Of a stretch of 64,000 nt of DNA, positions 8,331 through 64,000 are shown in pieces. Position numbers and translations under genes: made by a program. Where the stretch lies: positions 43,849,912 to 43,913,911 of the forward strand of contig NC_081383.1 of the NCBI RefSeq assembly GCF_030684315.1, given 5' to 3'. A model generated the notes under the pieces. The model had not been told where the DNA came from. It ran no database searches and was given only the letters and a program-made list of their open reading frames with translations. Numbering within the stretch: position 1 is the first letter of the stretch; each line of letters begins with the position of its first letter. Source of the DNA: Stegostoma tigrinum (Eukaryota).

Positions 8331-8930
8331 ATAACTGAATTCTTTCCTCCATGGAAATACATGGATGTTCTATATCCTCTCCAAGATGTTAACACACTTC
8401 CCAAATAATCAAAATTGTATACACAACATTCCAGCTTATGCCTAAACAGAGACCTGCCTTAACAACATGCTCTTCCACCGCCAGTTTTGGCAATATGCAC
8501 ATCCACCAAAATAGTACCATTTAGATTCAACTACCTGTCCGTGTTGTTTTATCCCAGATTGTTTTAAATAATTGCAATGTTTCTGCCTATTTCATCAGTC
8601 TGTCTGCTTCCAGTCTGCTTATTTTCTTTAATTCACATTGCCAAGTTTAATACTATCTCTAGAATTTGTAGTTAATTGGCTGAAAAGCACTTTGGAATAT
8701 GCTGAGTGCATGATGGATATTATACAAATCCAAGTCTCTCATAACTCTCGCACCATCAATTTCAGGGTGACATGGAAAGAGGCAAGGACCAAATTTTCAG
8801 TTATTTTGGCTGTAAATGGTATGTGGGCATGATGGAGATCAAGGGCAGGGAAGGTATCTCAGCTTCAATAACAATTATTAAAGCATAAATGACGAGTAAA
8901 AATGGCTAATTGGTTTCTTTATTTTTCCAG

Positions 8931-9087
8931 GATCAGTGGATGTGTCCCGTCGTAATCCAATTGCCTCATGGATGTGTGCAATGCTTTATTGCTTTGCCAG
9001 TTACATAATGGCTGACGTACTGCTTGGAGAATCACCCCTCCATTATTTTAACAACACCTCTCACATCTTACTGGCAACTGCTGTTTG
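8931..9087 (+). CDS. TMEM38A: TMEM38A-like TRIC channel, coding exon 2 (157 nt)
   Basis: Acceptor ttttccag| and donor |gtgagt. Encodes (G)[51 protein letters not shown](W), close to TMEM38A [34 protein letters not shown]. Confidence 0.93.
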
Positions 9088-10452
9088 GTGAGTGAACACA
9101 GGTTTTGTCATTCACTTTGTTAAATTCACTTTTTTGCTGTGGGTGGGTGTGATAAGAATCAGGTTGGTGGGCAGAGGAGAACATGAGGGTATGAAAGTAT
9201 AATTATAGTATCATTCAGTATAAAATAACTCAAAGTTTGTTCTTGTTTGTTCCCCACGTTAAAATACTACTCTGCTTGGTGATATTGAGAAATAAATATG
9301 GAGAAGGACATTCGGATTAGTTTACAATTTAGAACACTGCAGTTATCCAGATTGGTTCTAAGAGCTGGACGTCTAGGGAAACATAAATTTAAGAGTAATT
9401 TGACCAAAGTTTATAAACTTACTGGAAATGAAATGTTTTTGCATCGACCAATTGTAAAGATTAGGGAGAATGTGTTCATATTTACTGATCGCGTAAGGAT
9501 AGAGGAATTTACAAAACAGGTTGTTGGTTTGAGTAGGTATGTTGATTTATTGAATTTCTTTAAATAAAAGCTGGGCATGTTTCTAGATCACCTGCTATAA
9601 GTCTTTCCCCAAACCCTAATTGGCTTTAGAATTTTTGTTGTTGTTATTTTTATATGGTTTAGGGTGAGTTGAGATATATGTGGTATATGTGCTGAAGTGC
9701 AAGGCACCACAACTGTATGACTCTGTGTCACAAAATGTAACACTAAGCTACATTAGGAAATGTTAGGTCAAATGTCAAAAAACTTTCAGCCATGGTTGAA
9801 TGACAGAGCAGACTCGATGGGCCAACTGGCCTAATTCTCTTCCAACATCTTATGGAAATGTCTCCATGGAGGAAGTGAATTTGAGAGCCAGAGAGGTGAA
9901 TGATGTATTCCAGACCTTCGCCACTAGGCAACTGAAAGAACAGCCACTAATGGTGAAGCAAGTGGCAAGTAAAACTTAGGGACAAGTATAGTCTTTAAAA
10001 CTGGCTTACTGCACTTGGTTTTTCAAATGAGAATACTGTGAAGCAGCAGATCCAACAAAAAGCTAGAAGTTGGAAATGCTTATGTCAAGGACCCATTGAT
10101 ATGAGGAATTTGTAAAAACTAGATAACTTGTGCAATTGAGGAGGACTGATGCAGGAGGTGGCTTCTGTGGACAAAAAGGCCTGTTTTTACATTGTAAAAT
10201 TCTAAATTATTCAATATTAAAAAAGGAAAAAAATCCATATTTCCTATTTTTGCATAATTACAAGTTAGATCAATGATTTAAAAGAGGCTGATCATAGCTA
10301 TCACTCTATGTTCACTCATTGTCAAATAATTAAACTTAACAATGGCATCAAGCCCCTAGCTACCAACTGTTTCATTGATCAACCTTCAGAGAAATTGGAG
10401 AAATACTATTGTTCCTCCCTACCTCCCATGGTTACACCATTGTGAAAGTAAA

Positions 10453-12462
10453 TGCAATCATTAATATAGCAAGTAGTTTAGCAGATTATGAGGTTAATTG
10501 ATTAAATTGACTGGGTAGATATGGAGGGGATACAAGTACACTTGTTGTTTGGCGCTAGTGTCCCTACCTCAAGTTAGAAGAACCTCAAGTTCAAGTCACA
10601 ACTCCTTCAGGGGTGCATCAAAACATATCCAAACAGGTTGATTAAAATAAGCTGTAAAGAGGAAATAGGTGGGACTGGTGCATACAAGGAACTGTACGGC
10701 TGAATACTTGATAAATTCTACCCACAAAGAATGATGTCTTGGTTTCTGTTTCACTGAGTGACTTTGATGCAGATTGACATTGGGAGTAGCATAAATGGCA
10801 GTCTAAGGAAGGATTGAAAACTAAAGGTTCTTTTCAGGCAGATGATTATAATTGGAGTTACTTTGGAGAAGAATGCTGAAACCAAGTGCAAAGTGTTGAC
10901 TTCCCAGTGACATTTCGTTAAGGTGAACTTAGCAATCCATGGGAAAATGAAGCAGATACGTGTACATAGGTTAAAGCTAGACCAAGAGAAAAAGGTAATT
11001 GCCTCTTCTACCCACTTACTAAAAAGATGATCAGGTGTAATGTATTCTCAGGACTAGAGTCTCAACCATTTTCAGATAGAAACACTTCTGAAAAAGATAT
11101 CAGAAGCATTAAAAAAATTCTTGAAGAATATTCACTACCAGCAACCTTCTGGCTCAATTGGGGTATTCAACAGCAGCACAAAGAATGGAGGATTCGATTG
11201 GAATGGCAAAAAGACACCACTCAGATACAGGCTGAAAGCATCAATACAAGAAGAGAATCTAAAAAATAGAGAAGACAGAAATGCCGACAACACCATCAAA
11301 TGTCGCACTGAAACATTTTAGTGACTACAAATTATTTAGAAGTTGACGAAGGATGCCAAACAAAAAAAGTTGGAGTGCTGGAAAGAATTTAGTATATACT
11401 ATGGTACCAAATAGGGTACCACCAGGCTCTTCATAAAGATAGGTATGGACAGAATATTGTTTCAACTAAAAATCTGGTAGTCAGATGCAACTGTCAATTG
11501 CCCTAACACAGAAAAAGTGATCTTGAAGATCTTAGTTCTTTTAGAAACATACTCTTGGTAATATAAGTCACTTCATATAAAAGTTGCCCTTTTGCAAGGT
11601 GACAAGTTTCAAAGGGTAGCGTTTTTGAAACCACTTAAAGAAGCAGGCAGTATAGAAGAGAAACTGCGGAACTAAGGAAGTAAACAAATGTGTTTATGGG
11701 TTGAATATTGAGTGAAGGTAGGCTGTTTTTCCAGACCTGGATGACCCAGAAGACATATAGCTTTTTAGTGATGCTGCACATGCCAATCCTCCAGTTGGGT
11801 ATTTGTGTATAGCATAGTTTATTACATTCTTGGTGGGAAAGAAGGAAAAATATTTTCTTGGTAGGAGCCAAGAAAATAAAAAAAGGGTATTTCACATCAG
11901 CAGAAGCAAGGACACGTGTGTATTTATCCAATATTCTAAACAAAGTCTTATAAATTTTGACAATCTGAGAAAAAAATGGCCCATAGAATGTAATGTGGCT
12001 AACACATTGTCTTACAAAAGTAATCTTGGAGATCCTGAAATTAGACATAGGCTGATACTAGGCATTACAAGAACACAAAAATCAACTTTTGTTTGGGTCA
12101 CTTTGTGACTAAGAGCATTTATAACATATTTTGTTTCAAGAGAAAGGAATATGAAAGATTGATTGTGTGTGTGGAATTTGAAAAATATCATTACTGATTA
12201 CTGCAGTTGTATTACAAGGTAAGATCTAGAATATGAGGATTGTTTGTTTCCAAACGTTTTATTCAAAGAAAAGGGTGTTTCTTATTACAGGAAGTAGTTA
12301 AATAGTTTTTGGGATTAATTGATTAAATTGACTGGGGTAGATATAAAGGGAGACTGGAGTGTGGAAGGAGCTGTAATCCTGAGTAGTGAATAAACTCTAT
12401 GCACAAAGAAAGGTGTCATGGTTTGTGTGTCACCTATTGGCTTGATTCCCTCTCTTTTAACA
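10453..12462 (+). mobile_element. Degenerate, internally deleted Ty3/Gypsy LTR retrotransposon in TMEM38 intron 2
   Basis: Direct repeats ttaattgattaaattgactggg(g)tagatat at about 10494 and 12316, and cacaaagaa..tgtc.tggttt at about 10723 and 12402. Polypurine tract AAAGAAAAGGG at 12265-12275 is followed by TGT, and the 3' LTR ends in ACA at 12462. The interior has RNase H-like (LRYRLK...NADN) and integrase-like remnants. Confidence 0.65.
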
Positions 12463-12861
12463 CAGTACATAACTTTACTGAACCAACAGGGCATTACTTG
12501 GTGACTTTCTTCACGGTGTCCACAAACACTGCTTTATAGTCAAGCAGTGGGAGAGGTCTGTTAATGTTCTTACCTTTTTGATTTTCCCCCTTTCTATTTT
12601 AAGCTGCTTCCATTTAGGATTGTCTAATTTACTTAATGAATTTCAATACCCAGCAAAGGCATGGCACAGCTTGTACCTGCTGTGCCTACTATTTCAGTCT
12701 ACAACGGGTGAAAAGAAAACTTCTATTAAGGACATTAAATCATGTTAAAACCGTATATTTGTTGAAACTAATGTGGTTTACATATCACCAATTAAATAAG
12801 ATTTAGTTACTAATATTGAACATTTGTCATTACTGAAATAAACACCATTATTTCAACTTAG

Positions 12862-13046
12862 GTACCTCATCTTTTATTGCCCACTGAACCTTTTCTACAA
12901 ATGTGTGGCCTTCATGCCTGTGAAGTTGGTCCTCACTGCTATGAAAGAGGTGGTGCGAGTCCGCAAAATTAGTGTGGGTGTAGTCCATGCACACCATGCT
13001 TACCACCACGGATGGATCATAATGGCTTTGGTTGGATGGGCCAAAG
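12862..13046 (+). CDS. TMEM38A: TMEM38A-like TRIC channel, coding exon 3 (185 nt)
   Basis: Acceptor cttag| and donor |gtaagt. Encodes [61 protein letters not shown](G), with the TRIC KEV.R.RK motif. Phases are compatible with the flanking exons. Confidence 0.95.
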
Positions 13047-13359
13047 GTAAGTTGCCTTTTATTGCTTTATTTTTGAAATGTTACACTGGATATTACAGTG
13101 CTATACAGTCATTTTGTATTAACCAGTCCCCTAGCCAAGGACTGCCCTCGAGCTGCATATTCCTCCAAAAACATTCATCTTGTTCAAGTCAGAACTAAAA
13201 TGGACTTGGTATCGGCATGAAACAAAATGTCCAATTTTGTGACAGAGAAACTGCAGTCCATATTGAAAGATACCCAGCTACATAGTCAAAGGCAACAAAA
13301 TATCCAGAGCACTTAGGCCATTACTTAGTACTGGTCATTGTTATTTTTGTTCCTCACAG

Positions 13360-13447
13360 GTGCTGGAGTTGCACTGATCTCCAACTTTGAGCAGCTGATT
13401 CGTGGAGTCTGGAAGCCTGACACAAATGAGTTTCTCAATATGTCCTT
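13360..13447 (+). CDS. TMEM38A: TMEM38A-like TRIC channel, coding exon 4 (88 nt)
   Basis: Acceptor tcctcacag| and donor |gtaagt. Encodes [29 protein letters not shown](F). Confidence 0.95.
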
Positions 13448-13988
13448 GTAAGTGAAAATTACAGCACAAAATAAAAGGGCAGCATATTTTACAACCTGAG
13501 CAATTTAGTAAAAGAAAATGAATGTTTGAAGTATGGACTGTAAAGTGGCAACAAATTAACTCAAACCTGGTTTGTGCTGCCATTCAAAGCTCCTTAGCAC
13601 CTCTTTAGTATTTCCAAGTAGAGGAATTAATGGTGCAGTATTTGGATACCGTGACATGTGCAAGTTCAGTCCTGTTCTCCGGATATGGAAAGACAAGAAG
13701 GATGGGGAAATGGGGGAGTTGGTGGAGGGTAATGGTAAGGACATTGAGCAAAGACAAGGTGCCTCTCCACAAGGAAACAGAAGAGTAATGAACAGCATTG
13801 CTGCTGATCTGAAACCTTTTAGCAGAATCTGAAGGCAGATAATCCACTGGGCTTTTCAATTATAAAAGTAGCTCATCCAAAAGTGGGAAACTGATTGCAC
13901 AAAAATGGTCACTAAAAAAAAAAACAAAAATGGAGACATTACACAACTAACAAAACTAACTGTACATTTTTATTCTGATCTCTTATAG

Positions 13989-14106
13989 CCCAACAAAAGC
14001 TAGTTTGGTTGGAGCTGTTGTCTTCACCCTACAGCAGGCCCGCTGGCTTCCCATATCCAAACACAATATCGTCTTCCTGTTCACCATCTTTATGGTTGTT
14101 ACGAAG
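13989..14106 (+). CDS. TMEM38A: TMEM38A-like TRIC channel, coding exon 5 (118 nt)
   Basis: Acceptor tcttatag| and donor |gtaaat. Encodes [39 protein letters not shown]. Confidence 0.95.
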
Positions 14107-15089
14107 GTAAATATATCTTTTCAATTGACTAAAATAAAAACAGGTTTAAGCTATGTGATATGCTATGCAAGTGGATGCAAGAGTGTTACTTTCCTTTCCA
14201 ATCTAAAGTTTATGAAAGATTAAAATATTGAAACTCAATATTGATTGTGACTAAAAACTTCCAGTGTTTCTTTCAGTATATTAAAACATTGTCAATTAAG
14301 ATACTTTTGTCTTTATTCATTCATGGAATGAGAGTCACTGGCAATATGAATATTCATCAGTTCATTCCTTATTGGCCTCAAGAAGGTGGTCCACTACTAG
14401 CTGGTCAACTGTCGTGGTCCAAGTGGTGTGCACACATGCAAAGTACAGTTAGATAGGGAGATGCAGGATTTCCAGTTCCAGGCCCATTAATTGTAAAGGG
14501 TGATGTTTCAGTCAGGGACAGATTTGCACAGGATGGTGTTCCTGGATGCCTGAAGGCTTTGTCCTGTTAGGTAATAGAGGTTATAGGCATGAAATTCTGT
14601 CAAAGGAGCCTTGGTAATTCGATGAAGTGCATCTTGTAGATCGAAGACAATGCTGCCACAGTATGCCAGTGAGATTCTATCATTATGATTACTTTTGGCT
14701 CAAGGCTCTTTTCACTATGAAGTTATTAATTAATCCTGCATCATTAAACATTACTAGGTCTTAAAAACCTTGCTTCTGGTTGACACTGAACATACTCCAA
14801 GAAATAATCCAAAAAATTCTGTGCCAGTGTTGTACCAATTAATTTACCAATACACAATGCTACCAAAATAACAAATCATACTACTACTACTGGGATGACA
14901 CTAATTTGGTGATTGTTTCATAAACAGAAGCAACAAGATTCACCACACCAGTCAATAACAGTTTTTTTAAAAATCCAGAGATGAATATACTGAGATTTTC
15001 ACCATACATTGCAAATCGCAGTAAGAGGATACAATAAGGGCTATAGATGTAGGCAGCAAGTTTAAAAAAAAGACAAAACATAGATGTCC

Positions 15090-24200: not shown

Positions 24201-25521
24201 GTTGTTGGTGGGAATCCAGAGGGACAGGAGTTATATGTATTTGGAAAAGCAAGGACTGATTAGGGATAGTCAACATAGCTTTGTGCATGGGAAATCTTGT
24301 TTCATAAATTTGATTGAGTTTTTTGAAGAAGTTACAAAGAGGATTGATGAGGGCAGAGCTGTGAACATGATCTATATGGACTTCAGTAAGGCATTCAACA
24401 AGGTTCCTCATGGTAAACTGGTTAACAAGGTCAGATCACACGGAATACGGGGAGAATTGACTACTTGGATACAGAACTGGCTCGAAGGTAGAAGATGGGG
24501 CGAGAGCGAAGGGTTGCTTTTCAGACTGGAGGCCTGAGACCAGTGGTGTGCCACAAGGTTCAGTGCTAAGTCCACTGCTTTTTGTCATTTATAAAAATGA
24601 CTTGGATGTGAATGTAGGAGGCATGGTGAGTAAGTTTGCAGATGACAGCAAAGTTGGAGGTGTAGTGGACAGCGAACACAATTACCTCAGAGAACACATG
24701 GGCCAATGGGCCCAGGAGTAGCAGATGGAGTTTAATTTAGATAAACGTGAGGTGCCAAATTTTGGAAAGGCAAATCAAGGCAGGACTTATACACTTAATG
24801 GTAAGGCCCTGGGGAACGTTGTTGAACAAAGAGACCTTGAAGTGCAGATTTGCAGTTCCTTCAAAGTGGAGTCACAGGTGGAGAGGATAGTGAAGGCAGC
24901 ATTTGGTATGCTTGCCTTTATTGGTCAGTGCATTGAGTATAGGAGTTGGGAGGTCATGTTGCAACTATACAGGACATTGGTGAGGCCACTATTGGAATAC
25001 TGCATGCAATCTTCATCTCCCTGCTACAGGAAGGACGTTGTGAACCTTCAAAGAGTTCAGAAAATATCTATATGGATGTTGCTAGGGTTGGAGGCTTCAG
25101 CTACAGGCAGAAGCCAAATTGACTCTGGCTATTTCCCCTGGAGCATCGGAGGCTGAGGGGTGACACTTATAAAATCATGAGGGGCATGCATAGAACAAAT
25201 AGACAAGGTCTTTTCCCCAAGGGTCTATAACAAGAGGGCAAAGGTTTAAGGTGAGAGGGAAAAGATATTAACAGGGCTTAAGGACAGCTTTGTCACACAG
25301 AAAGTGGTGCATGTATAGAATGAGCTGCCAGAGATAGTGCTGGAGGCTGGTACAATGACAACATTTACAAAGCATCTGGATAGGTATACGAAAAAGACAG
25401 GTTTACAGGAATAAGGGCTAAATGCTGGCAAATGGGACTAGATTTATTTAGGATTTCTGGGCTGGCGTGGACGAGTTAGACTGAAAGGTCTGTTTCCATG
25501 CTGTACATCTCTATGACTCTA
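21296..25521 (+). mobile_element. Near full-length, inactivated CR1/HER1-type LINE (ORF1 zinc finger + SGNH esterase; ORF2 APE endonuclease + RT)
   Basis: ORF1 from ATG 21296 (CSSC..CRK; VIGDSL..., VHIGTN, DRLHPS). ORF2 APE (KDFNFPNIDW, SDY) and RT ([32 protein letters not shown]). 3' tail ctctatgactcta. Many stops and frameshifts. The 5'UTR may extend to about 20700. Confidence 0.92.
23686..24034 (-). mobile_element. HE1-type SINE inserted into CR1 ORF2
   Basis: Minus-strand head ATGGTGGCTCAGTGGTTAGCACTGCT. It interrupts the CR1 frame at YPRSLWE|A, with GGGAA repeated on both sides. Confidence 0.85.
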
Positions 25522-50770: not shown

Positions 50771-51045
50771 TTCCTTAAGACTAAAGTGAACAACTAGGCT
50801 GTGTGTTGGCTTGGGCCAGCGATAATTCACTATTCGATATATCTTGCTCATTTTCTTAAATTCCCTCTTCATTCACCTGACCCCATAAGCATTGCAACTG
50901 AAACTGGAAATTTGGGAAGAGATTGGATTTGCAATTCCTATTCAAATATCCTGCTGTTTCACCTCTGCTGAAAAGAATGGAAGAAGGATAACATTATTTT
51001 CTTTTTCAGAAGGTTTTCCAAAAGGTGTGATCAACTGCAATTGAG

Positions 51046-51238
51046 ATGTTCCATTGTGGTTACTGTGATTTGGGGACAGCGTGCATTGATGAGCTAGATA
51101 TTCACATTCTAGAGACACATACAGACTTTCAGCCTTCTGACTGCCCTCCTGACAAATTATCCAATCAGATTTTTCCAGTTTCGACATGCTCCAATTTACA
51201 ATCCAGTCAGCCTGACATGCAGATATTTGTCAATCCTG
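51046..51238 (+). CDS. ZNF462-like zinc finger protein, first coding exon
   Basis: Acceptor ttttctttttcag| (exon starts 51010), in-frame upstream stop at 51028, ATG at 51046. MFHCGYCDLGTACIDELDIHILETHTDFQPSD aligns with the ZNF462 N-terminus VLQCDGCDFRAPSYEDLKAHIQDVHTAFLQPTD. The phase-1 donor CTG|gtaag joins in frame to 53108. Confidence 0.88.
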
Positions 51239-53107
51239 GTAAGAATGCATTCATAAAACTGTTATTTTCTTTTGCTTCTTTTTCCAGCATGTAACTGTGT
51301 TCAGTTTATGGAATTAGGTTAAGTACTGGTAGGTGTGCAAGCAATGCAGCTCGTTGCTGTCAAGAAAAACATTGTTCAGTGGATATGTTGGATACACTGA
51401 GTACTTAATTATAGCAATAAAACCAGATGTTCCTACTTCATTATTATAAACATGCAGGGTGGAATCTCAAAGGTTAGAACAATATGGGATATACCGTGAG
51501 ACTTGTGGCAGAATCATGCAAAATTTCTGATGGGGCCTATCTAAATGTCAGAAGCTTCACAAGCCATCCTGTGTGCTTTTGACAAGTGATGTGGTAGGTT
51601 TCTTGCCATGCAGTGATGAATTGTCAATTAGGAGGGATTGTTGCTTGTTAAACACCTAGTTAAAGGCCCAACACGCCTCATTAATATTCAACTTATCTTA
51701 GTAAATCTGCCAACGAGCTGGAAATTGACAAATCTTTACATGAAAATCAAAATGGGTACCTGGTGATTTCAATTCAGTATTTGTTCCAAAGGACCTCCTT
51801 CCTGGACACCACCACTATGGGGCACAGTCCGTAGGCACTGGTCACCCACACCACACATTGTCAGATATTGTTATCAGACATGGGTTTAACATGACTGTCT
51901 TACTTTTGTGCTCTGTACCCCTGTGTATAAAGTGCAGGAAACTGCATTCCTTATCAACTACAAAATGCACTTGCACATCATTTAGAGTTTATAATTGCGC
52001 CCTTTTTTATGTCAATTTTGGCATTCTTTCTAACAAAATTGTAGAACTTACTACTTTCCTGCCTTAAATTTAATCTGCCAATTGCCTATTCAATCCATCA
52101 ACATGCCTTGACCTTTATGCTAACCTCCACACAGTTTCTAATATATCAAAAATTTCAGTTGTCTGTAAGCTTTGAAACTCTGCCAAGTGCACCAAGGTGC
52201 CGCTATTTAAGTTGCGTATATAAGGAAGAACAGTGAATCCATTGCAGTCCCAAAATCATTCAATAACAACATGGAGACAAGTAATTGTTCCTCTAGTGTG
52301 AATTTGAATTATTTCATTTTGGCATGTATCTATCCAGAGTAGGAAATGTCTGCCTTAATGTATTGACTTACCTATTATCTTTTTTAGTGTACTTTGTTTT
52401 AGGAACATCCTCTGTTCTGGAATTTTATAATCTTGCTCATTTTTCATTCAGATCTTCCAAATATGTTTTAATGATTTATTTTATACTTGACTGTACCTTC
52501 AGTCATTTTCCTGGTTGAGACAATTGTGGTGGCGGAGTGACACTTATGACGAAATGACATATGGCTTGTCCCACCCCCCACCCCTGCTCAGACATTTGTT
52601 CTCTCTTTTAGAGCATCCTGCCTTGTTCCATCTTAACTGTGTTCAAATACTTTAAAAAGATGCTTAAAAACATCTGTCGCTTTAACTGTTACAGCCTCTG
52701 ACAATATAATTTCAGAGCGAAGTGATGGATTGACTTCATAGAATCTGCAGGACAGTACAATCCAGATAGGGTTAATTGTTGTTTTGATCTGCAACTTAAT
52801 TGTCCAGTGTTTCTCTCAGGATCACCAAATAAATAAATGTCGAACTCTGTCTCAGTAAATGAGACAGATTTCTGATTGTTACGAATAAATTATTTCAGTC
52901 AGTAAAAGCAAAATACAATGGATGCTGGAAATCTGGATATAAACAGAAAATAGCGTGGAAACTCAGTGGCCCTGACAGCACCTGTGGAGTCAGGAACAGT
53001 TAAATTCTGATTCCAGAGATATTTCTTTAAAACTAAGTGTTTGTCTTTTGCTGTATACTTCTACATAATCCTAAGTAATTTTACTGTGATATTCGCCCTC
53101 TGTGTAG

Positions 53108-56100
53108 GACAAGGCTTGAGAGTTGGGAACAAGAGTGACTTGAATGAGGACTTGATCCACAGCAGTCATGTTATTCCATCAGTTGACCATTTCCAAATGA
53201 GTGGTGAGTATCCTTATGGATGCACAGCTTTCAAGGAATATCTGAATTCCTCTTGTGAGACAGTTGGGAAATTAGAAACACTAGAAGAGTCAAACAAACA
53301 AGTTGCTCTTTCCAACACGAATGCAACATTTGCCATTGAGCAGGTGACGGATGTGTGTAGTATTGCACGTGATAATGAATGCAATAAACCCAACATTTTC
53401 AACAAGGAGTCCGAATTAGATCTGCTAAAGGACGCTACTTTGCCCTTCAAAAGTGCTGAGGAACCGGAAATGACAAACCTGGGTCTCTCACAACTTCGTG
53501 AAACTATGTTGGAAGTAACTAAGGAAACGGAACTGTCTGAAAGTTCGTTGTTTTTACCTCTGGATGGAGGACAGAATACATTGCCAAAACAGATTAATCC
53601 TGATAAACCAAACAAAGATGGGATGGAAGTGGAAGTAGATGGAAAATTAGTTGCAGAGACTGGTAAGATGCCCTGTTCGTGGTGTGAACATGACACATTC
53701 AATAAACAATGCTTTGAAGGTCATACAAAAGAACAACATAGTTACTTTGAAAGTGACGAAGAGACTCCGATCTCCACAATGGAGCCAGGGTACTTGGGAT
53801 GTAAAGAACAGGACTCCAATTCTCAAGTTGATTCAATGAATTATGCTTCTCGGAATGCAGAGACAATAGTGAGAGAGAGTGAACTGTGTAGAATTGAACG
53901 TGAAAACCCTCTCTCAAAAAGCAATTCGGGTGACATCTCAATAACTGGTGGTGACAAACCTTCCAAGAATATGCGACAGAAATCTGTAACACATCTTACT
54001 TTTCGGCAAAAAGTCAGAACAACATTAAAACTTAACAGCCAAACTGTATTCTATGTGAAACGACTATGTTTGTTTCATTGTGTTATTTGTCGATTTCATA
54101 CTTTGTACCGTCGTTGTGTCTTGCGCCACGTGAGGAGTATGCATCATAGCCACGTTAGAAGTCCTAAACTGAAAGGCTGTGTCAGGTTTTCCAATGGTTT
54201 AAGTACACTGAAACTTGGTAAAAAGGAGTGCACTTTAAAAAAGTTAATTTTGAACAGTGGTCCACTGCCCTTGGAAAGAAAGGATTCCCGAGTACTCAAA
54301 CCAGATAGGAGTGTAAGAAGTGAAAATGTAAATTTGATGCCTTTTGTTGCAAATCCATCACTTTGCCCTAGTGAATCAGATATTACTGAATCTAAAAATT
54401 GCTTAAGAAAGCAACATGTTAATCCATGTCATGAAGTGTCATTCGTCCAACAGATTAATGATCAAATACAATTTTCAATACCTTATCTTCTGGCTAATGA
54501 TTCAGATGCTAAAACAAGTTCAGTAATACCTAAAGATCCTCCAGGAGCTCCTTCACATTTTTCACCGTTGATGACGTCTTATGAGAAGATAACCTATGGT
54601 GATCTGAATATTAAAACTCTGCCACCTTCTAGTAAGTGCCTGGCATTGGAAGCCATAGTGGAAAACCTGAAAAGTCGTGTGGCATCACCAATCAAATGCA
54701 GGCCAACAGTTGCATTGCTTAATGATCGAATAGCAAAGCCCAGGCGAAGCATTCCATTTTGTAGAACAACAGAGGAGCAGCAGGCTAAGTGGGTGATGGA
54801 GGCATACACTTTCTTAAAGCAACAGAAGATTGAAAGAGCTGCTGAGTTTTCTTCCTGTGATGATGATGATTATCTCCTTGATGCAATGGCTGAAATTGAA
54901 GTCGTGCTATCTGATACAGATGATAACGGTAACTATTCACAAGGCTGTCAAAATTATGGAACTTCAAACGTAAACTTTGCAAAAGCAGCAGAAGACAAAA
55001 GAGAAATTCTCAGTCTTGCATCAAGTGCAAAAATAGAACCAGGAAATGTTTGCAGTCGGTTGCACAAATGTGACATCTGTCCTTTTTCAAGTGCCAGTAT
55101 TATGTCAGTTCTGTCACACTGTCATAGACAACACCCCGAAGAAAACATACCTTCCCCCAAGATCCAGAAATATAGCAGTAAGATGACTGTGCAGACGGGA
55201 TTAGATTTACCTTTGCCCAAGCACAGCTTATTTTGGTTTGATTCTAAATCTGCTGATTCAGTTATTCCTTGTTTTACTGGATCTTCAACATTGTGTTTCT
55301 GTGAACATTGTTCATTCAGTGGAGACTGGGTTTCTTTATTTGAGCATTACCAAAAATCTCATACATCTACAAATGTAACTAAATATGGGAGACCGAAAGA
55401 GTCAGAGAGAAGAAATGTCAGCAATTTACAAGTCAGGGCTCCAGTAGCTTCCACTTCTAGCAGTGAGCCACAGGTGGTGTTTCAGTGCCAGCTCTGTAAT
55501 TTTACCTGCTCATCAAGACGAGTCATTTGTCGACACTATTGCATCAGGCAGAGTGTTACTTGTGCTCAAGTTGAAGACTTTGATATTCTTTACAAATGTG
55601 CCTTGTGTATGTATACTCATTTAACTCAGGAAGGACTCATTAATCATTATCTCATATACCATGATATTGAACCTCAATTTAGCTCTCGTGGAATCAAGAC
55701 AGGCCAGAATGAACTTGTCTCATTCCTATCCAGTGATGAGGATCTGAAAGCTGGTATGGAAAAACAGATATGTATGCTATGTTCATTTAAGGCTATTACT
55801 CAAAAAGAACTTTTGTTCCACTATAAATTACGACATCCAAGATTTTATTCCCAAAATAGGTGCACTATTGAATGTAAAAATCATGCCAATTTGCATACAA
55901 CAAACCTAGATCCACAATTTTGTGAAGCAAAACATTTCAAGAATGGAAGTGAATGTGTAAAGACTATGTTGGAGTGGGGAATGAGTGTGGTCAATACCAA
56001 GGAGCCTTCAGCCTTTGGTGATGGCAGTGAACTTGAATTGATCAGCTGTAAAAGAGATCGAGACTTAATAATGGCAGTGCCTGTCAGAGAACACCTGAGA

Positions 56101-56361
56101 AATCAAAACAACAGCCCATTTCATTATGGGCAGAAGGCCATCATGACTGCAAACTCATTAGATGTAACAAAATTGCCATCTAAACAATTTCCACTGAACA
56201 GACCTGGAAGTCGGAGCGTAGAATACAACCTAATGCCAGGAAAGCAAAATGTTGACAGCAGTGACATTTTTTGTGAATTTGGTGATCCTCTGAATAAAAT
56301 CACAGTCCAGGAATCTATATTTGGTGCTGAAGATGACTGGCAACAACGAGACCTGGTATGA
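53108..56361 (+). CDS. ZNF462-like C2H2 zinc finger protein, giant exon (3254 nt)
   Basis: Acceptor ctctgtgtag|GA CAA opens an uninterrupted 3.25 kb ORF with about 7 dispersed C2H2 fingers. FQCQLCNFTCSSRRVICRHY...LYKCALCMYTHLTQEGLINHYLIYHDIE matches recalled ZNF462 FRCQLCKYFCSTRKGIARHY...LFKCALCAYTNPIRKGLAAHYQKRHDID. It ends at TGA 56361 or splices at CTG|gtatga (56355). Confidence 0.9.
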
Positions 56362-56924: not shown

Positions 56925-57874
56925 AAAAAAAGTATGGCACAGGAACAGGCCCTTTGGCCCTCCTAAACCTGTGCTGATCATCATGCCCTGACTAGACTAA
57001 AAACCAAACCTTCTGCCCCTATTTGGTCCGTATCTCTCTATTCCCTCTCTATTCTCTCCCTATTCATGTAATCATCCAGATGCCTCTTAAATGTTGCCAA
57101 CATGCCTGCTTCCACAACCTCCTTTGGCAGTGCATTCCAGGTTCCTACCACCATCTGCATGGAAGAACTTTCCTCACACATCTCCTTAAAGATTTTCCTC
57201 CTCTCACCTTCAACTTGTGTCCCTTGTAATTGAAACTTCAACCCTGAGAAAAAGCATCTGACTATCCACCCTATGTATGCGTCTCCTAACTTTGTAGACC
57301 TCTCTCAGGTTTTCTCTCAGCCATCACCTTTCCAGTGAAAATAATCCGAGTCTTTTTAACCTTTCCTCACAGTCAATACTCTTAAAACCGGGCAGCATCC
57401 TGGTAAACCTTCTTTACACACTCTGTAAAGTTTCTGTATCCTTCCAGTGATGTGACAACCAAAACTGCACACAATACTTCAAATTTGACCTAACAGAGGT
57501 TTGATTTAGCTGCATCATGTTTTATCAACTCTTGTATGCTCCAGCTGATGAAGGTAAGCGTGCCATATAATCACTTTGGCTGACTGTGCCACTTTTAGGG
57601 AACTGTGGACCTGCGTGCCCAGATCTGTCTGTATGTTAATGTTCCTAAGGGTTCTGCCATTAACAGTGTAATTTACAACTAAATTTGATCCTCCAAAGTG
57701 CATCACCTCACATATTTGTCAGGATTAAACTCTATCCTCCTAACTCTAACTCCTGTGCCCATTACCAATCTATCTCTATCCTGCTTTATCCTTTCATAAT
57801 CGTTGGTGCAGTTGCTAATTGTACTAATCTGTGTCATCTGCAAACTTACTGATCAGACCACCCACATTTTCCTC

Positions 57875-57906
<32 letters not shown>

Positions 57907-58850
57907 CTACGAACAACATAGGGCCTAAGACTGATCCTTGTGGAACACCACTAGTTACCAGTCTCTATTCTGAAAAAACACTCTCCCACCACTACTCACT
58001 ATCTCCTGTGACCAAGCCAGTTTTGTATTCAGCTTGCCCACCCCAAATCCCATATGATTTTAGTTTTTGTACCAATCTGCCATGTAGGACTGATAAACAA
58101 CTTACTAAAGTCCATATAAACTACATCCACAGCTCTTTCCTCATCAATTATCTTTGTCACTTCAAAAAATTTGATCAGGTTGGTGAGACGTGACCTTCCT
58201 CAAATGAAATCGTGCTGCCTGTCACTAACTAGTCCATTTTCTTCCAGATGTGCATATATCCTGTCCCTCGGTATCTTCTCCAAGAGCTTCCCTCACCACC
58301 GATGTCAGACTCACTGGCCTGTAAATTCTTGGATTATTTCCTGGAACAAGCTAATCTCTAGTTCTCTGGAATCTTGCCTGTGGTCAAGGAGGATGTGAAG
58401 ATATCTGCTACTGTCCCAGCTATTTTTCTCTTGCTTCTTATAGTAAACTGGGATAGATCCCATCTGGCCCTGGAGATTTGTCAATCTTACTGCAATTTAG
58501 GATACCAAAACTTCCTCCTTTTAATATATTGACATTCTGTAGAGCATTCTCACACTCTTCCCTGATATCAGCATCAGCCCTGTCCTCTTCCTAGATCGAT
58601 ACCGATACAAAGTACTTATTAAGTATCTCTCCCATTTGCTGTGGCTCCACGCATAACTTCCTCCCCTTTGTCTTTGAGGGAGCCTACTATTTCCCTTGCA
58701 ACTCTCTCTTTCTTCTAACATATGCACAAAAAGCCTTGAGATTCTTCTTGACCTTGTTTTGCTAAAGACATTTCATGGCCCCTTTTTAGCCTTCATAATT
58801 TCTCTATACTCAAGGGCTTTGTCAGTTTCAGCTTGTTTTGGGTATGGTAA
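56925..58850 (-). mobile_element. CR1 LINE 3' half
   Basis: Minus-strand ORFs with MHFGGSN...[17 protein letters not shown] and WNALPKEVVEAG..ATFKRHLD. Confidence 0.88.
57880..57906. repeat. (AT)n microsatellite
   Basis: About 13 AT units inside a CR1. Confidence 0.95.
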
Positions 58851-59058
58851 TTTTTTCAAGCTACTTTCTCCTTTATGTTTTAAGTTGTAACTGCAGCTAT
58901 TTATTTTGCTTTGTCAAAATTGTTTTAACATAGAAATTTTAAGCAAAAATACTGAGATCTCAAATCTTCATGAAATAAGCAGATGTTCTAATTAACCTGA
59001 ATTTTTTTGTATTCTACTTAGAGTAAGATAAACTCAGCAAAAGCCAAGCTGCATGAAC

Positions 59059-59270
59059 TCATTTAGAAATTATTAATTTGACGCACAGATTTCTGAGTAG
59101 TTTTTCGACATTGAACTCAGTACTTTTGACTTGATTCAGCTGCAGCTGCTGTTTCAGCATTTTGTTGATATTGTGAATTGCAAGCACTAACGTTGTTGTT
59201 GGCCAGATCCTAGAGTGTGTACTAGAGTGCTCCGAGGCCACAGCTTTGAGAACGGCCATTTCAAACATGC
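59059..59270 (-). CDS. Candidate terminal coding exon of an unidentified convergent gene
   Basis: Minus-strand acceptor atttgttttacctgtag| followed by an open frame (x)MFEMAVLKAVASEHSSTHSRIWPTTTLVLAIHNINKMLKQQLQLNQVKSTEFNVEKLLRNLCVKLIISK*. AATAAA on the minus strand at 58900-58905. Unique, relatively CpG-rich island between repeats. Confidence 0.5.
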
Positions 59271-60254
59271 CTACAGGTAAAACAAATGAGAAAGCATTTT
59301 CTCATGCTAAATGTTAGGAATTAAAACAGCATAATTTCTGCTAAATAAAAGCAAAATAGTGCAGAAGGTGGAAATCTGAAATAAAGTGCTGAAGAACCCT
59401 AGCTGTTCTAACCTCATTTGTGGAGAGAAAAGCAGTTAATGTTTTGAATCCAACATTACAGATGTTTAGAACTGTATTTACCACAACTGCTATCAGACCT
59501 GCTGAGTTTCTTTAGTACTTTGTTTTTATTTCACAGGTGTAATTCCATTCACTGTCAAAAGCTTTTCCAAAATTTATAAAGCAATTTTTATTTAAAACTC
59601 CTTGTTCATTCTCTTTATCTCAACCACCTAACTTGTTCAAGGCCCTCCATGAAATTTGTTTTTTTTCCCCCATTACACTGATTGGAACGAAAATTTACAC
59701 ACGCACAAAACAGTTCCCATGTTGGAAACTTGAAATAGGTGTGTCAATCAATTATAAAAGCACAAAATTGTAAATTCCCCAAAACTATATTTAAAATGAT
59801 AAATTTTGAAAAATCAAGCAGATGAAATTATAATCTAGTAGCATGCTTGACCAGTACATTGATAAGATCTTGCTATTTATGGCTGTCCTGCTCATTTTAC
59901 CACCCTAATAATTTACCTGTCGTCTGTGAATGTCTTGAGTATACCTTACATGTTTTGAGCCCAAATCATACATCACAAACAGCAAGGGCCCCCAGCACTG
60001 AGTCTTGTGGAATCCCATTAGAAACAGACTTCCAGTCCTAGAAATTTCCATCTACTATTGTCCTCTGCTTCCTGCCTCGCAGCCAGTTTGTGCCACTTCA
60101 CACTGAATCCCATATGTTGTTTCTTTCTTGACCAGTCTGCCATGAGAAACTTTATCAAAAATTTGTTAAAGTCCACTGAAACCATATTAAATGAAATACT
60201 CTCACCAACACTCCTGGTTACGTACTCAAAACATTTGAATTAAATTTCTCAAGA

Positions 60255-62545
60255 ACAAACAAAGAACAAAGGAACAGACTCTTTGGCCCTCCAAGCCTGT
60301 GTGGATCCAGATCCTCTATCAAAACCTGTCGCCTATTTTCCAAGGATCTGTATCCCTCTGCTCCCTGCCCATTCATGTATCTGTCTTGATACATCTTAAA
60401 TGTTGTTATTGTGCCCGCCTCTACCACCTCCACTGGAAATGCATTCCAGACACCCACCACCCTCTACATAAAGAACTTTCCATGCATATCTCCCTTAAAC
60501 TTTTCCCCTCTCACCTTGAAATCGTGGCCCCTAGTAATTGAGTCCACCACTCTTTGGGGTGGGGGGGGGGGGGGGGTGTTTCTTGCTATCCACCCTGTCT
60601 ATACCTCTCATGATTTTGTAGACCTCAATCAGGCCTCCCCCTCAACCTCTGACTTTCTAATGTAAATAATCCTAATCTGCTCAAACTCTCCACATTGCTA
60701 GCGCCCTCCATGCCAGGCAACATCCTGGTGAATCTCCTCTGCACCATCTCTAAAGCATCCACATTTTTTTGATGCAGAGATCATAGGAACTGCCGATGCT
60801 GGAGAATCTGAGATAACAAGGTGTGGAGCTGAATGAACACAGCAGGCCAAGCAGGATAGGTGATGTTTCAGGTCAAGACCCTTCTTCAGAAATGGGGGAG
60901 GGGAAGGGGATTCTGAAATAAATAGGGAGAGGGGGGAGGCAGATACACCTCAAGCCCCATCCCCATCTCCTACCCACTAACCTTATGCTGCCTCCTTGAC
61001 TTTTCCGTCCTCCCTGGACCAAACTACCCCCTCCCTAACTCCCCACCTACATTCACCTTTTACTGACTCCAACCCGACCCTTTTGACTTGTGTGTCTCCT
61101 GTCCACCTATCTGCTCCTTTTATCTACGTTCCATCTGCCTCCCGTCTCTGTCTCTATATTTATTTCAGAATCCCGTTGCCCTCCCCCATTTCTGAAGAAG
61201 GATCTCAACCTGAAACATCACCTATCCTGCTCCTCTGCTGCTTGGCCTGCTGTGTTCATCCAGCTCTACGCTTTGTTATCTCACATCCTTTTGGTAATGT
61301 GGGCGACCAGAACTGTACGCAGTATTCCAAATGTGGTCGAACCAAAGTCCTGTACAACTGTAACATGACCTGCCAAATCTTGTACTCAATACCCCGTCCA
61401 ATGAATGAAAGCATGGCATATGCCTTCGTGTCCACTGTATCCACCTGTGTTGCCATCTTCAGGGTACAATGGACCTTAACACCCAGATCTCTCTGTGCAT
61501 CAGTTTTCCCCAGGGCTTTTCCATTTACCGTATAGTTCGCTCTTGAATTGGATCTTCCAAAATGCATCACCTTGCATTTGCCTGGATTGACTCCATCTGC
61601 CATTTCTGTGCCCAACTCTCCAATCTATCTACATTCTGCTACATTTTCAGACAGTCCCCTATACCATCTGCTACTCCACAATCTTAGTGTCATCTGCAAA
61701 CTTACTAATCAAACCATCTCTACCTTCCTCCAGATCATTTATGTTTATCACAAATAACAGTGGTCCCAATACTGATCCCTGTGGAACACCACTGGTCATG
61801 GTTCCCCATTTTGAGAAATTCTCTTCCACTACAACCCTCTGTTCCCCTTTACCCAGTCAGTTCTCTATCCATCTAGCTAGTACATCCTGGACCCCATGCG
61901 ACTTCACTTTCTCCATCAGCTTAATGTAGGGAACCTTATCAAACACCTTATTGTAGACCCTGTGTATGACATCTACAGCCCTTCCCTCATCTATCAACTG
62001 TGTCGCTTCCTCAAAGAATTCTATCAAGTTGGTAAGACATGACCTTCCCTGCACAAAACCGTGCTGCCAATCATTAATAAGCCCATTTTCTTCCAAATGT
62101 AAATAGATCCTATCCCTCAGTATCTTCTCCAGCAGCTTCCCTACCACTGACATTGGGCTACTGGTCTGTAATTACCTGGATTATCCTTGCTACCCTTCTT
62201 ACACAAGGGGACAACGTTAGCAATTCTCCAGTCCTCCAGGGCCTCACCTGTGCTCAAGGATGCTGCAAAGATTATTTGTTAAGGCCCTGGCTATTTCCTC
62301 TCTCGCTTCCCTCAGTAACCTGGGATAGATCCCATCCAGACCTGGGGACTTGTCCACCCTAATGCCTTTTAGAATACCCAACACTTCCCCCGCCACACCT
62401 ACTTATGCCGACTTGACCTCCATTTCCTTCTCCTTGGTGAATACTGACACAAAATACTCATTAAGAATCTCACTCATTTTGTGTGACTTCTCGCATAACT
62501 TCCCCTCTTTTGTCCTTGAGTGGGCCAACTTTCTCTAGTTACCCT
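60255..62545 (-). mobile_element. CR1 LINE ORF2 RT region to 3' end, interrupted by a Penelope element
   Basis: SVVGKLLEKILRDRI...[30 protein letters not shown] and LYRTLVRPHLEYCVQFWSP. Confidence 0.92.
60772..61282. mobile_element. Penelope insertion with an inverted pLTR pair
   Basis: 60810-60945 is the reverse complement of about 61140-61282. Hammerhead-like cores at 60862-60889 (-) and 61192-61219 (+). CACAT occurs on both flanks. Confidence 0.85.
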
Positions 62546-62559
62546 CTTGCTCCTTATGT

Positions 62560-63750
62560 ACAAATGTCAATGTTTTGTGTTCTCAAATGTCATCTTTCCT
62601 TAATAAATACATGATCATGATCCCTGATTAATCCATATCCCAAAGTACAGATCTATTCTGTCCCTAAGAATTCTTTCTGATAATTTTCCACCTCCAAGGT
62701 TTGCGTGACTGATCTATAATTTCATGGTCTATCCCTTCCTCCTTTTATTTAATAACGGGACAATTTTCAGTCCTCCATTCCTCTGACACCTCACCAGTGG
62801 TGAGAGAGGATCTGAAAATTGCTACCAGTGCTCCTGACATCTCTTCCTTTACCTTCAATAATCTGGATTCATCTCATCTAAGCTATTGAATTTATCCAGT
62901 TTTAAGACTGCTGAGCGTATAGTACCTCCTCTGCCTCTCTCTTTCTTTCTGTCTCTGCGTGTTCGTCTGTCTGTGTGTCTCTCTTGTTCCCACTGCCTCC
63001 CTCTCTTTCTGTCTGTGTGTCTCTCTTGTTCCCACTGCCTCCCTCTCTTTCTGTCTGTTCATCCTGCTCCCTGTTCTGTGTGTCTCTTTTTGTTTTGTAA
63101 AATTTCACAGTCCTCCATACCCTCGTGACTATACCTGCATTATCCTTTTCCACTATGAGGACTGTAGACTCATCATTTGAGGATGGTTCCCACATCTTCT
63201 GGAACACGTTTATAGATACCATAGCGGTACTATTTTTTAAGAAAACCCCGTAAGATTTTCTTTTATTACTCCACCAGTGCTTTTTCACTTATACTCTTAG
63301 TTCTCCTAATTTCAAACTCCCTTTTGTATTCTTCTAGGGATTGCAGCATTGATCCCTCAGTGCCTGTCGTAAGATTCTCCTTTTTTCCCCTTAATCCTAC
63401 ATTTTATTTTGTCTCTTAATGTCCAAGATATCTGGTCATGATCCCAGCATTTACCTTCATGGGGACATATTTATCCTGTACCCTTGTTTCCTTGTTGAAT
63501 GTTCTGATACAGCTTTATCTAAGGAGCTGTTCCCAGTCCAAATGAGCAAATCTTATTGTAGTAAAATTATTCTTTCTCCTCTTTTTAGAGCTTTTAATCT
63601 CAGTCCACCCTTCTCTTTTCCTGCAACTCTCCTAAATGTCTCTAAAATGCTCCCATATTTAGACACTTGCCAGCTCCTTACATGAACATGTATTCCAGTT
63701 CGCCTGATTGAACTTTTTTTTCCACTGCCTTCCGGACTCTCTGTCAGGCA
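62560..63750 (-). mobile_element. Old CR1 ORF2 fragments
   Basis: Degenerate minus-strand GVRGME..NCPVIK and PDY remnants. Confidence 0.5.
62967..63057. repeat. 42-bp tandem repeat (about 2.2 copies) in a CT/GT-rich tract
   Basis: Unit CTGTCTGTGTGTCTCTCTTGTTCCCACTGCCTCCCTCTCTTT is duplicated; visible as a 14-aa repeat in the ORF track. Confidence 0.85.
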
Positions 63751-63764
63751 TTTTAATTTAGAGT

Positions 63765-64000
63765 CAGGCTTGTACAGTATAGTTAACAGACCCTTTGGTC
63801 CAACTCATCCATGCTGATGAGCTTTCCTAAATTAATCTAGTCCCATTTGCCAGCTTTTGGCCCATATCCCTCTAAACCCTTCTTATTCATGCACCCATCT
63901 AGATGTCTTTTAAATGTTGTAATTGTACCAGCCTCTACCCCTTCCTGTGGCAGCTCACTGCATATACATACCACCGTCTGCATGAAAAAGTTGTCCCTTA
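63765..64000 (-). mobile_element. CR1 3' end, truncated by the window
   Basis: Reverse complement of the CR1 3'UTR and ORF2 end (EAGTITTFKRHLDG). Confidence 0.85.

Follow-up and report, generated by a model that had tools for sequence, protein, structure and literature searches.

The 64,000-nucleotide stretch of DNA analysed here (the window; Stegostoma tigrinum, contig NC_081383.1, positions 43,849,912 to 43,913,911) carries the 5' part of a gene related to ZNF462. ZNF462 (ZFP462) is the Weiss-Kruszka syndrome gene, a dosage-sensitive developmental disease gene. Splice-site and phase analysis of the window gene, referred to below as the paralogue, gave 11 coding exons over ~65 kb that encode 1604 aa with no internal stops. 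Its exons are listed here in window positions, except for those beyond the window, which are given in positions of the whole contig (G000:C38).

51010..51238, plus strand: coding exon 1, with the acceptor at 51009/51010, the ATG at 51046, finger 1 at 51055-51120 and a phase-1 donor (CTG/GTAAGA)
53108..56355, plus strand: giant coding exon 2, 3248 nt, with seven fingers that are counterparts of ZNF462 fingers 4, 5, 11, 12, 20, 21 and 22
56356..56361, plus strand: phase-0 splice donor GTATGA (CTG/GTATGA, 56355/56356), containing an apparent TGA stop at 56359-56361
G000:C38 43926286-43926491, 43930352-43930398, 43930893-43931057, 43938057-43938291, 43945913-43946166, 43948066-43948289, 43951731-43951842, 43960408-43960526 and 43966269-43966280, plus strand: nine further coding exons of the splice-site and phase model, beyond the window

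The coding part of exon 1 (51046-51238, 193 nt) joins the acceptor at 53108 in frame, and the acceptor at 51009/51010 implies an upstream non-coding exon. The frame of the giant exon stays open to 56358, which has a chance probability of ~1e-26 at the stop frequency of the window; the runner-up stop-to-stop frame in the window is 213 aa long. A first-pass annotation of the window had described a 193-nt exon and a giant exon that splice in frame without stops, and our model confirmed this arrangement together with the CTG/GTAAGA donor. The two-exon product of 1148 aa that it proposed was not borne out, as the TGA at 56359-56361 lies within the phase-0 donor, exon 2 measures 3248 nt and nine more exons extend the protein to 1604 aa. 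A search of 100 kb beyond the window placed these exons 12-52 kb past its end, where they add eight fingers. The C-terminal finger cluster that the annotation had noted as not visible in the window is encoded there, and is the best-conserved tie to ZNF462. In Pfam, the window protein matched ZNF462-type finger families only, PF23075 (34.5 bits, cut-off 27) being the single family over its cut-off.

The 1604-aa model is identical from residue 553 to its end to P0001 (XP_048415946.2), a 'zinc finger protein 462-like' entry labelled Stegostoma tigrinum. P0001 begins at an internal methionine, residue 553, and is without the first 552 residues, which correspond to the first exon and three fingers. 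The coelacanth protein and those of Scyliorhinus, Heterodontus, Heptranchias and Pristiophorus keep the N-terminus of our model. These four shark genera and Chiloscyllium, five in all besides Stegostoma, have full-length orthologue models that are 1596-1660 aa long. Additionally, a 5,686-nt Logan contig encodes a skate orthologue through 8/8 junctions checked, and therefore implies a spliced transcript in a skate. Two sequencing runs from one sample, possibly the source of the DNA analysed here, cover an exon without a break into the introns on either side, and are uninformative on expression.

The first-pass annotation interpreted the gene as a sister of ZNF462 and suggested a search of the same genome for a separate, more conserved ZNF462 locus. 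Such a locus was found on contig C3, as a 1975-codon open frame. The partial C3 model (11 exons, last exon left out) encodes 2548 aa and 35 fingers, and its product is 94% identical to bamboo-shark ZNF462 and 58-59% identical to ZNF462 of coelacanth, mouse, chicken and platypus. Judged by these identities, the C3 gene is the ZNF462 orthologue; the window gene, which is not the closest to tetrapod ZNF462 and has 16 fingers versus about 35, is not the 1:1 orthologue. A whole-genome search with one downstream exon recovered the two ZNF462-type loci, followed by weak generic finger matches (150 of 684 candidates scored), and an all-frames tblastn of C3 versus C38 was dominated by repeats. Intron phases are equal exon by exon at both loci, save for one lost phase-0/0 exon and one exon that has shrunk from 119 to 47 nt. 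The giant exon of the C3 gene (5822 nt) has phases 1 and 0, as has the 3248-nt exon of the paralogue. Between the paralogue's giant exon and its next exon, no counterpart of the 174-nt ZNF462 exon scored above background (best score 37). The earlier statement that the giant exon of ZNF462 starts with GQ holds for mouse and orca ZNF462 at the equivalent place, whereas the same genome's own ZNF462 starts with TQ.

The paralogue has 16 CxxC-type fingers, 8 of them beyond the window, and 15/16 best match ZNF462 fingers in colinear order. The remaining 19/35 ZNF462 fingers have been lost, including the centre of the longest tandem array (the four-finger run 26-29). Because hagfish ZNF462 has fingers 7-10, 13, 17-19, 23, 25, 27 and 28, their absence represents loss in the paralogue. 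Two tandem pairs are left (30-31 and 33-34), and most fingers are isolated. Only 15/60 recognition-helix positions are equal to those of ZNF462 (one finger being offset by a residue). Two non-finger blocks lie within the giant exon.

54637..54717, plus strand: conserved non-finger block, with a helix-like segment (54637-54672) common to ZNF462 and hagfish, then a paralogue-only PxVxL-like motif
54892..54924, plus strand: hydrophobic-then-acidic segment, homologous to an invariant ZNF462 segment; putative SUMO-interacting motif (SIM)

The description of the linkers as unrelated to ZNF462 was thus overstated, since the helix-like segment and the acidic SIM-like segment both align with invariant ZNF462 linker motifs. 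P-x-V-x-[LVI] is present in 12/13 of the paralogue proteins listed, and the coelacanth has P-x-I-x-V. The conservation of the motif would make the first block a candidate for binding the HP1 chromoshadow dimer, but one PxVxL-type match is expected by chance in a protein of such length. The second block is a candidate SIM. In ZNF462 itself, PLDLS followed by an invariant basic-helix segment occurs in 11/11 jawed-vertebrate proteins aligned, and on C3 it lies in the giant exon. PxDLS is a CtBP-binding consensus, and amongst the literature on ZNF462 with CtBP no paper on a PLDLS link was evident by title. PLDLS is not present in the paralogue and is also missing at that place in the hagfish model; given a hagfish model without it, the motif may be a gain in ZNF462.

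Word-based searches yielded elasmobranch orthologues only (19 proteins in one search, 11/17 matches in another). Relatives were found via the downstream exon and the proteins of other species, and any that share the N-terminal part alone could escape. Of 1.84 billion representatives searched with a profile, 1498 matched, and our conclusions are drawn from the best 150, all annotated proteins. Amongst the 90 best new matches, three had a better score with the paralogue than with ZNF462, namely the proteins of Narcine, Callorhinchus (436 versus 188 bits) and Latimeria (the coelacanth LOC102363179; 201 versus 131 bits), and none of the remaining 56 rose above generic-finger level. With a later hidden Markov model (HMM) of the paralogue, 20/146 scored higher than with the ZNF462 profile, 17 of these at <45 bits and resembling generic fingers. 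That HMM included the coelacanth, Narcine and Callorhinchus proteins, which makes their own scores circular, and the independent comparison is that of 90 of the 146 new matches. The coelacanth protein shares derived traits of the paralogue: a degenerate finger 20, the helix/PxVxL block and a CCHC finger 31 that carries a long insert. An approximately unbiased (AU) test that included it rejected a duplication confined to cartilaginous fishes (p 1.3e-6). As sharks, rays, Callorhinchus and the coelacanth all have orthologues, the duplication is, on these comparisons, older than the cartilaginous/bony split.

No orthologue from ray-finned fishes or tetrapods was seen amongst the best 150 of the 1498 matches. 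That list reaches down to 74 bits versus 289 for the coelacanth, so a similarly divergent annotated orthologue should appear in it and an unannotated one would not. The distribution suggests two independent losses, in ray-fins and in the lungfish-tetrapod line. Fragments of hagfish ZNF462 were found. Teleost 'ZNF462-like' proteins were rejected as orthologues, as they retain the middle fingers and fall with teleost ZNF462 in the trees. In the sawshark Pristiophorus japonicus, four short proteins (P0012, P0013, P0018 and P0019) depart from P0009, the full-length protein, at several residues, a finger cysteine included, and are likely to derive from a second, partial 3' copy of the paralogue.

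The paralogue has evolved much faster than ZNF462. With the hagfish as outgroup, its stem, before the coelacanth-chondrichthyan split, carries ~1.2 changes per finger column versus 0-0.05 at the base of ZNF462. Finger identity between sharks and batoids is 74-75% for the paralogue and 96% for ZNF462. Across 7 orthologues, fingers (74-90% identity) were ahead of linkers (47-74%) in all 7. Further fingers are missing from the models of individual lineages (12, 29 and 35 in the coelacanth, 12 and 20-22 in Callorhinchus, and finger 1 in batoids), although some of these gaps are possibly annotation errors, as is possibly the end of the Narcine model after finger 26.

The genomic context of the paralogue is that of a duplicated chromosomal block. 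A TMEM38 gene lies upstream in the window.

8927..14115, plus strand: TMEM38A (TRIC-A), four exons with PF05197 matches; upstream synteny anchor

One exon of this gene scored 102 bits to TRIC-A chains versus 63.5 to TRIC-B. A TMEM38 gene is upstream on the same strand at both ZNF462-type loci, and no TMEM38 locus besides these two was found in the genome. C38 additionally carries RAD23, a calreticulin and MED26, all within 0.6 Mb. C3 carries an SLC44. C45 has an SLC44 as well as a calreticulin adjoining RAD23, and on C10 a calreticulin is accompanied by two SLC44. C3, C38, C45 and C10 are four paralogous regions, and the paralogue occupies the kind of duplicated block that is expected of a whole-genome-duplication ohnologue. 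We take C38, C3, C45 and C10 to correspond to human 19p13.11, 9q31, 19p13.13-13.2 and 1p, respectively, and assume chicken Z as the position of ZNF462/TMEM38B and chicken 28 as that of TMEM38A. SI Table 3 of the skate genome paper (PMC10115646) gives chicken Z as the alpha and chicken 28 as the beta product of one copy from the first vertebrate genome duplication (1R), and the available text of that paper describes loss as greater and evolution as quicker on beta segments. The lengths of C3 and C38 are 140 and 46 Mb; given the chicken gene positions above, they would fit the chicken alpha/beta pair.

The suggestion that the gene is a sister of ZNF462, possibly a whole-genome-duplication ohnologue, that is not recognised from mammals is therefore supported by the separate conserved ZNF462 on C3, the duplicated TMEM38-ZNF462 pair and the coelacanth orthologue. 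We are highly confident that the paralogue is an ohnologue predating the cartilaginous/bony split. Probably it is the beta member of the pair left by the second vertebrate genome duplication (2R), the 2R rather than 1R timing being inferred.

Two other aspects of the surroundings should be recorded. Only two RAD23 genes were found, one beside the calreticulin (C38:43302521-43319941) and one on C45, with XPC-binding, protein and UBA searches in agreement, and none was found beside ZNF462 on C3 near 26.2 Mb. In human, RAD23B lies beside ZNF462. The pattern may reflect reciprocal ohnologue retention, in which the shark RAD23B-like gene is a hidden paralogue, or an assembly gap. A TRIM-type gene (RING, coiled-coil and B30.2-like exons, from translations only) lies on the minus strand ~23-50 kb past the last finger exon, tail to tail with the paralogue. 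Within the window, positions 21549-25153 and 57000-64000 hold broken fragments of long interspersed nuclear element (LINE) type (endonuclease and reverse-transcriptase pieces, none >213 codons), and the introns and intergenic DNA are filled with LINE fragments and copies of short interspersed nuclear elements.

The fingers that the paralogue has kept lead us to propose a function. In the available text of a preprint on mouse ZFP462 (bioRxiv 10.1101/2021.06.28.449463), the protein guides G9a/GLP to enhancers. The C-terminal fragment, which comprises fingers 15-27 of the 27 that the preprint counts, silences when tethered and pulls down G9a, GLP, WIZ and HP1, whilst the N-terminal and middle fragments do neither. 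A 2026 preprint (10.64898/2026.10.09.758088) counts 34 fingers and, in the part available, describes targeting as context-dependent. In the paralogue, 11 of the last 16 fingers are kept versus 5 of the first 19 (Fisher p 0.018, a value weakened by the choice of the 16/19 split after inspection of the data). After duplication, the paralogue would have shed most N-terminal and middle fingers plus the centre of the tandem run 26-29, changed most DNA-reading helix positions and kept the C-terminal fingers. Its protein could then serve as a co-repressor adaptor in the nucleus, directing silencing of the G9a/GLP type to sites that differ from those of ZNF462. Such a protein would join ZNF462, WIZ and ZNF644 amongst the zinc-finger adaptors that recruit G9a/GLP. 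Because the C-terminal fingers, the half that recruits G9a/GLP in mouse, are retained, the tandem run is broken and the helix residues are changed, we give a co-repressor adaptor with altered targeting an even chance of being correct. Taken as a whole, the best explanation is an intact 11-exon, 1604-aa ZNF462 paralogue beside TMEM38A, likely to be the 2R beta copy and predicted to be a G9a/GLP-type adaptor, and we consider it somewhat better than evenly probable.

We speculate further, and tentatively, that one ZNF462 copy was rebuilt right after 2R, dropping the main DNA-reading array, keeping the G9a/GLP-binding tail and gaining an HP1-docking motif by the SUMO-binding patch; this scenario is possible, though on balance doubtful. 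If it were true, the protein would be a silencing adaptor guided by its partners or would compete with ZNF462, and the parts that it has retained would map, through 450 million years of natural deletion, the essential repressor core of the Weiss-Kruszka gene.

Several observations weigh against the main interpretation. Concerning origin, the C3 TMEM38 exon tested scored about equally to TRIC-A and TRIC-B (65 versus 62 bits) and is not diagnostic, so the name 'TMEM38B' rests on position. The finger tree has no root that separates 1R from 2R, both trees containing the coelacanth protein carry a long-branch warning, and the tree without that protein fails to date the duplication (p-AU 0.41). The absence from ray-fins and tetrapods is drawn from the 150 annotated matches described above. 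A duplicate from 1R, or from an early segmental duplication, would fit the very large divergence from ZNF462, which exceeds that of hagfish ZNF462, in a tree without an invertebrate root. It is an improbable origin given that several neighbours are duplicated too, unlike a single-gene event, that C45 and C10 resemble the other 1R pair, and that the available part of PMC10115646 assigns chicken Z and chicken 28 to the alpha and beta sides of 2R and reports faster beta copies. A duplication in cartilaginous fishes only, as the early word-based searches with their elasmobranch orthologues might suggest, conflicts with the coelacanth orthologue and the AU rejection; the 1148-aa two-exon gene, which read-through of the giant exon's donor would yield, conflicts with downstream exons that are intact, conserved and joined both in database proteins and in the Logan contig. 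Both are refuted as principal explanations and we regard them as extremely improbable.

Concerning function, the C-terminal blocks of the paralogue have only 30% identity to ZNF462. Fingers 23-25, 27 and 28, which the paralogue has lost, probably fall inside the mouse C-terminal fragment, the limits of which are imprecise in the available text, and the G9a-binding surface could therefore be amongst the lost parts. The adaptor role is a prediction from the retained C-terminal fingers. A gene of the same origin could instead encode a sequence-specific transcription factor with new targets and partners and no tie to G9a/GLP: most recognition-helix positions differ from ZNF462 (15/60 equal), yet the fingers are conserved amongst orthologues, the tandem pairs 30-31 and 33-34 remain and the stem branch is long. 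We find such a factor unlikely, though it deserves consideration, as the fingers are mostly isolated, the longest tandem run is broken and the kept fingers concentrate in the half that carries repression in the mouse fragments reported. The low shark-batoid finger identity (74-75% versus 96% for ZNF462), the further fingers missing from the coelacanth, Callorhinchus, Narcine and batoid models and the apparent double loss in bony vertebrates would also suit a duplicate on which selection has relaxed and which is in slow decay, its role residual or limited to certain tissues. Slow decay is, however, hardly to be expected of a frame that is open over 11 exons here, with models of 1596-1660 aa in five other shark genera, and of finger and motif blocks conserved out to the coelacanth; we judge it quite improbable. 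The co-repressor adaptor remains our preferred prediction.

We found no paper on a ZNF462 ohnologue, its locus or protein, or on a coelacanth or cartilaginous-fish zinc-finger ohnologue. Judged by titles and the starts of abstracts, none of the papers listed on ZNF462 with 'paralog' concerned the paralogue, and PMC6172828 makes no mention of Zfp462. ZNF462 was not found in the supplements of ohnologue surveys, of which the gene lists themselves were not visible, and the gene may be listed there. The paralogue is a real and apparently undescribed ohnologue of a disease gene, one whose evolutionary history is clear and whose function is predicted; its class is known, and database entries exist without a name of their own in the records seen. 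As a copy that survives in sharks, rays, chimaeras and the coelacanth, it illustrates rapid remodelling as an escape from loss after genome doubling, and the fingers and linker motifs kept by both copies for >400 million years narrow the search for the ZNF462 co-repressor surface. It also reveals that 'ZNF462-like' in databases denotes two unrelated things, the ohnologue and the teleost duplicates.

The 'zinc finger protein 462-like' and 'uncharacterized' entries of chondrichthyans, with LOC102363179, are the paralogue itself and its orthologues, and automatic names fail to separate them from teleost ZNF462 co-orthologues, which are also called 'ZNF462-like'. A fast teleost ZNF462 copy (P0021-P0024 and many profile matches; branch 1.2-1.4) is without PLDLS, the SIM-like motif and several N-terminal fingers and is, on this evidence, a second, independent remodelling of a ZNF462 duplicate. 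The divergent teleost copies (Sebastes, Mugil and others) resemble the paralogue in being fast-evolving, named 'ZNF462-like' and without PLDLS; unlike it, they are 2250-2530 aa long, keep fingers 8-10 and 13-19 and cluster with teleost ZNF462 (93-94 bootstrap). The paralogue resembles differentially retained 1R/2R ohnologues in its beta-segment position, fast rate and loss in most bony vertebrates; the available parts of two surveys report 17 such genes kept in chondrichthyans and the coelacanth (PMC10115646) and 135 shark-only ohnologues (PMC13450315). With ZNF462 itself, it shares the exon layout, intron phases, 16 colinear fingers, the motif after finger 34, the linker helix, the SIM-like segment and the upstream TMEM38. 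It differs in its length (1604 versus about 2550 aa) and finger number (16 versus 35), in having lost one exon and shrunk another, in possessing its own PxVxL-like block and no PLDLS, and in its much faster evolution and narrower taxonomic range.

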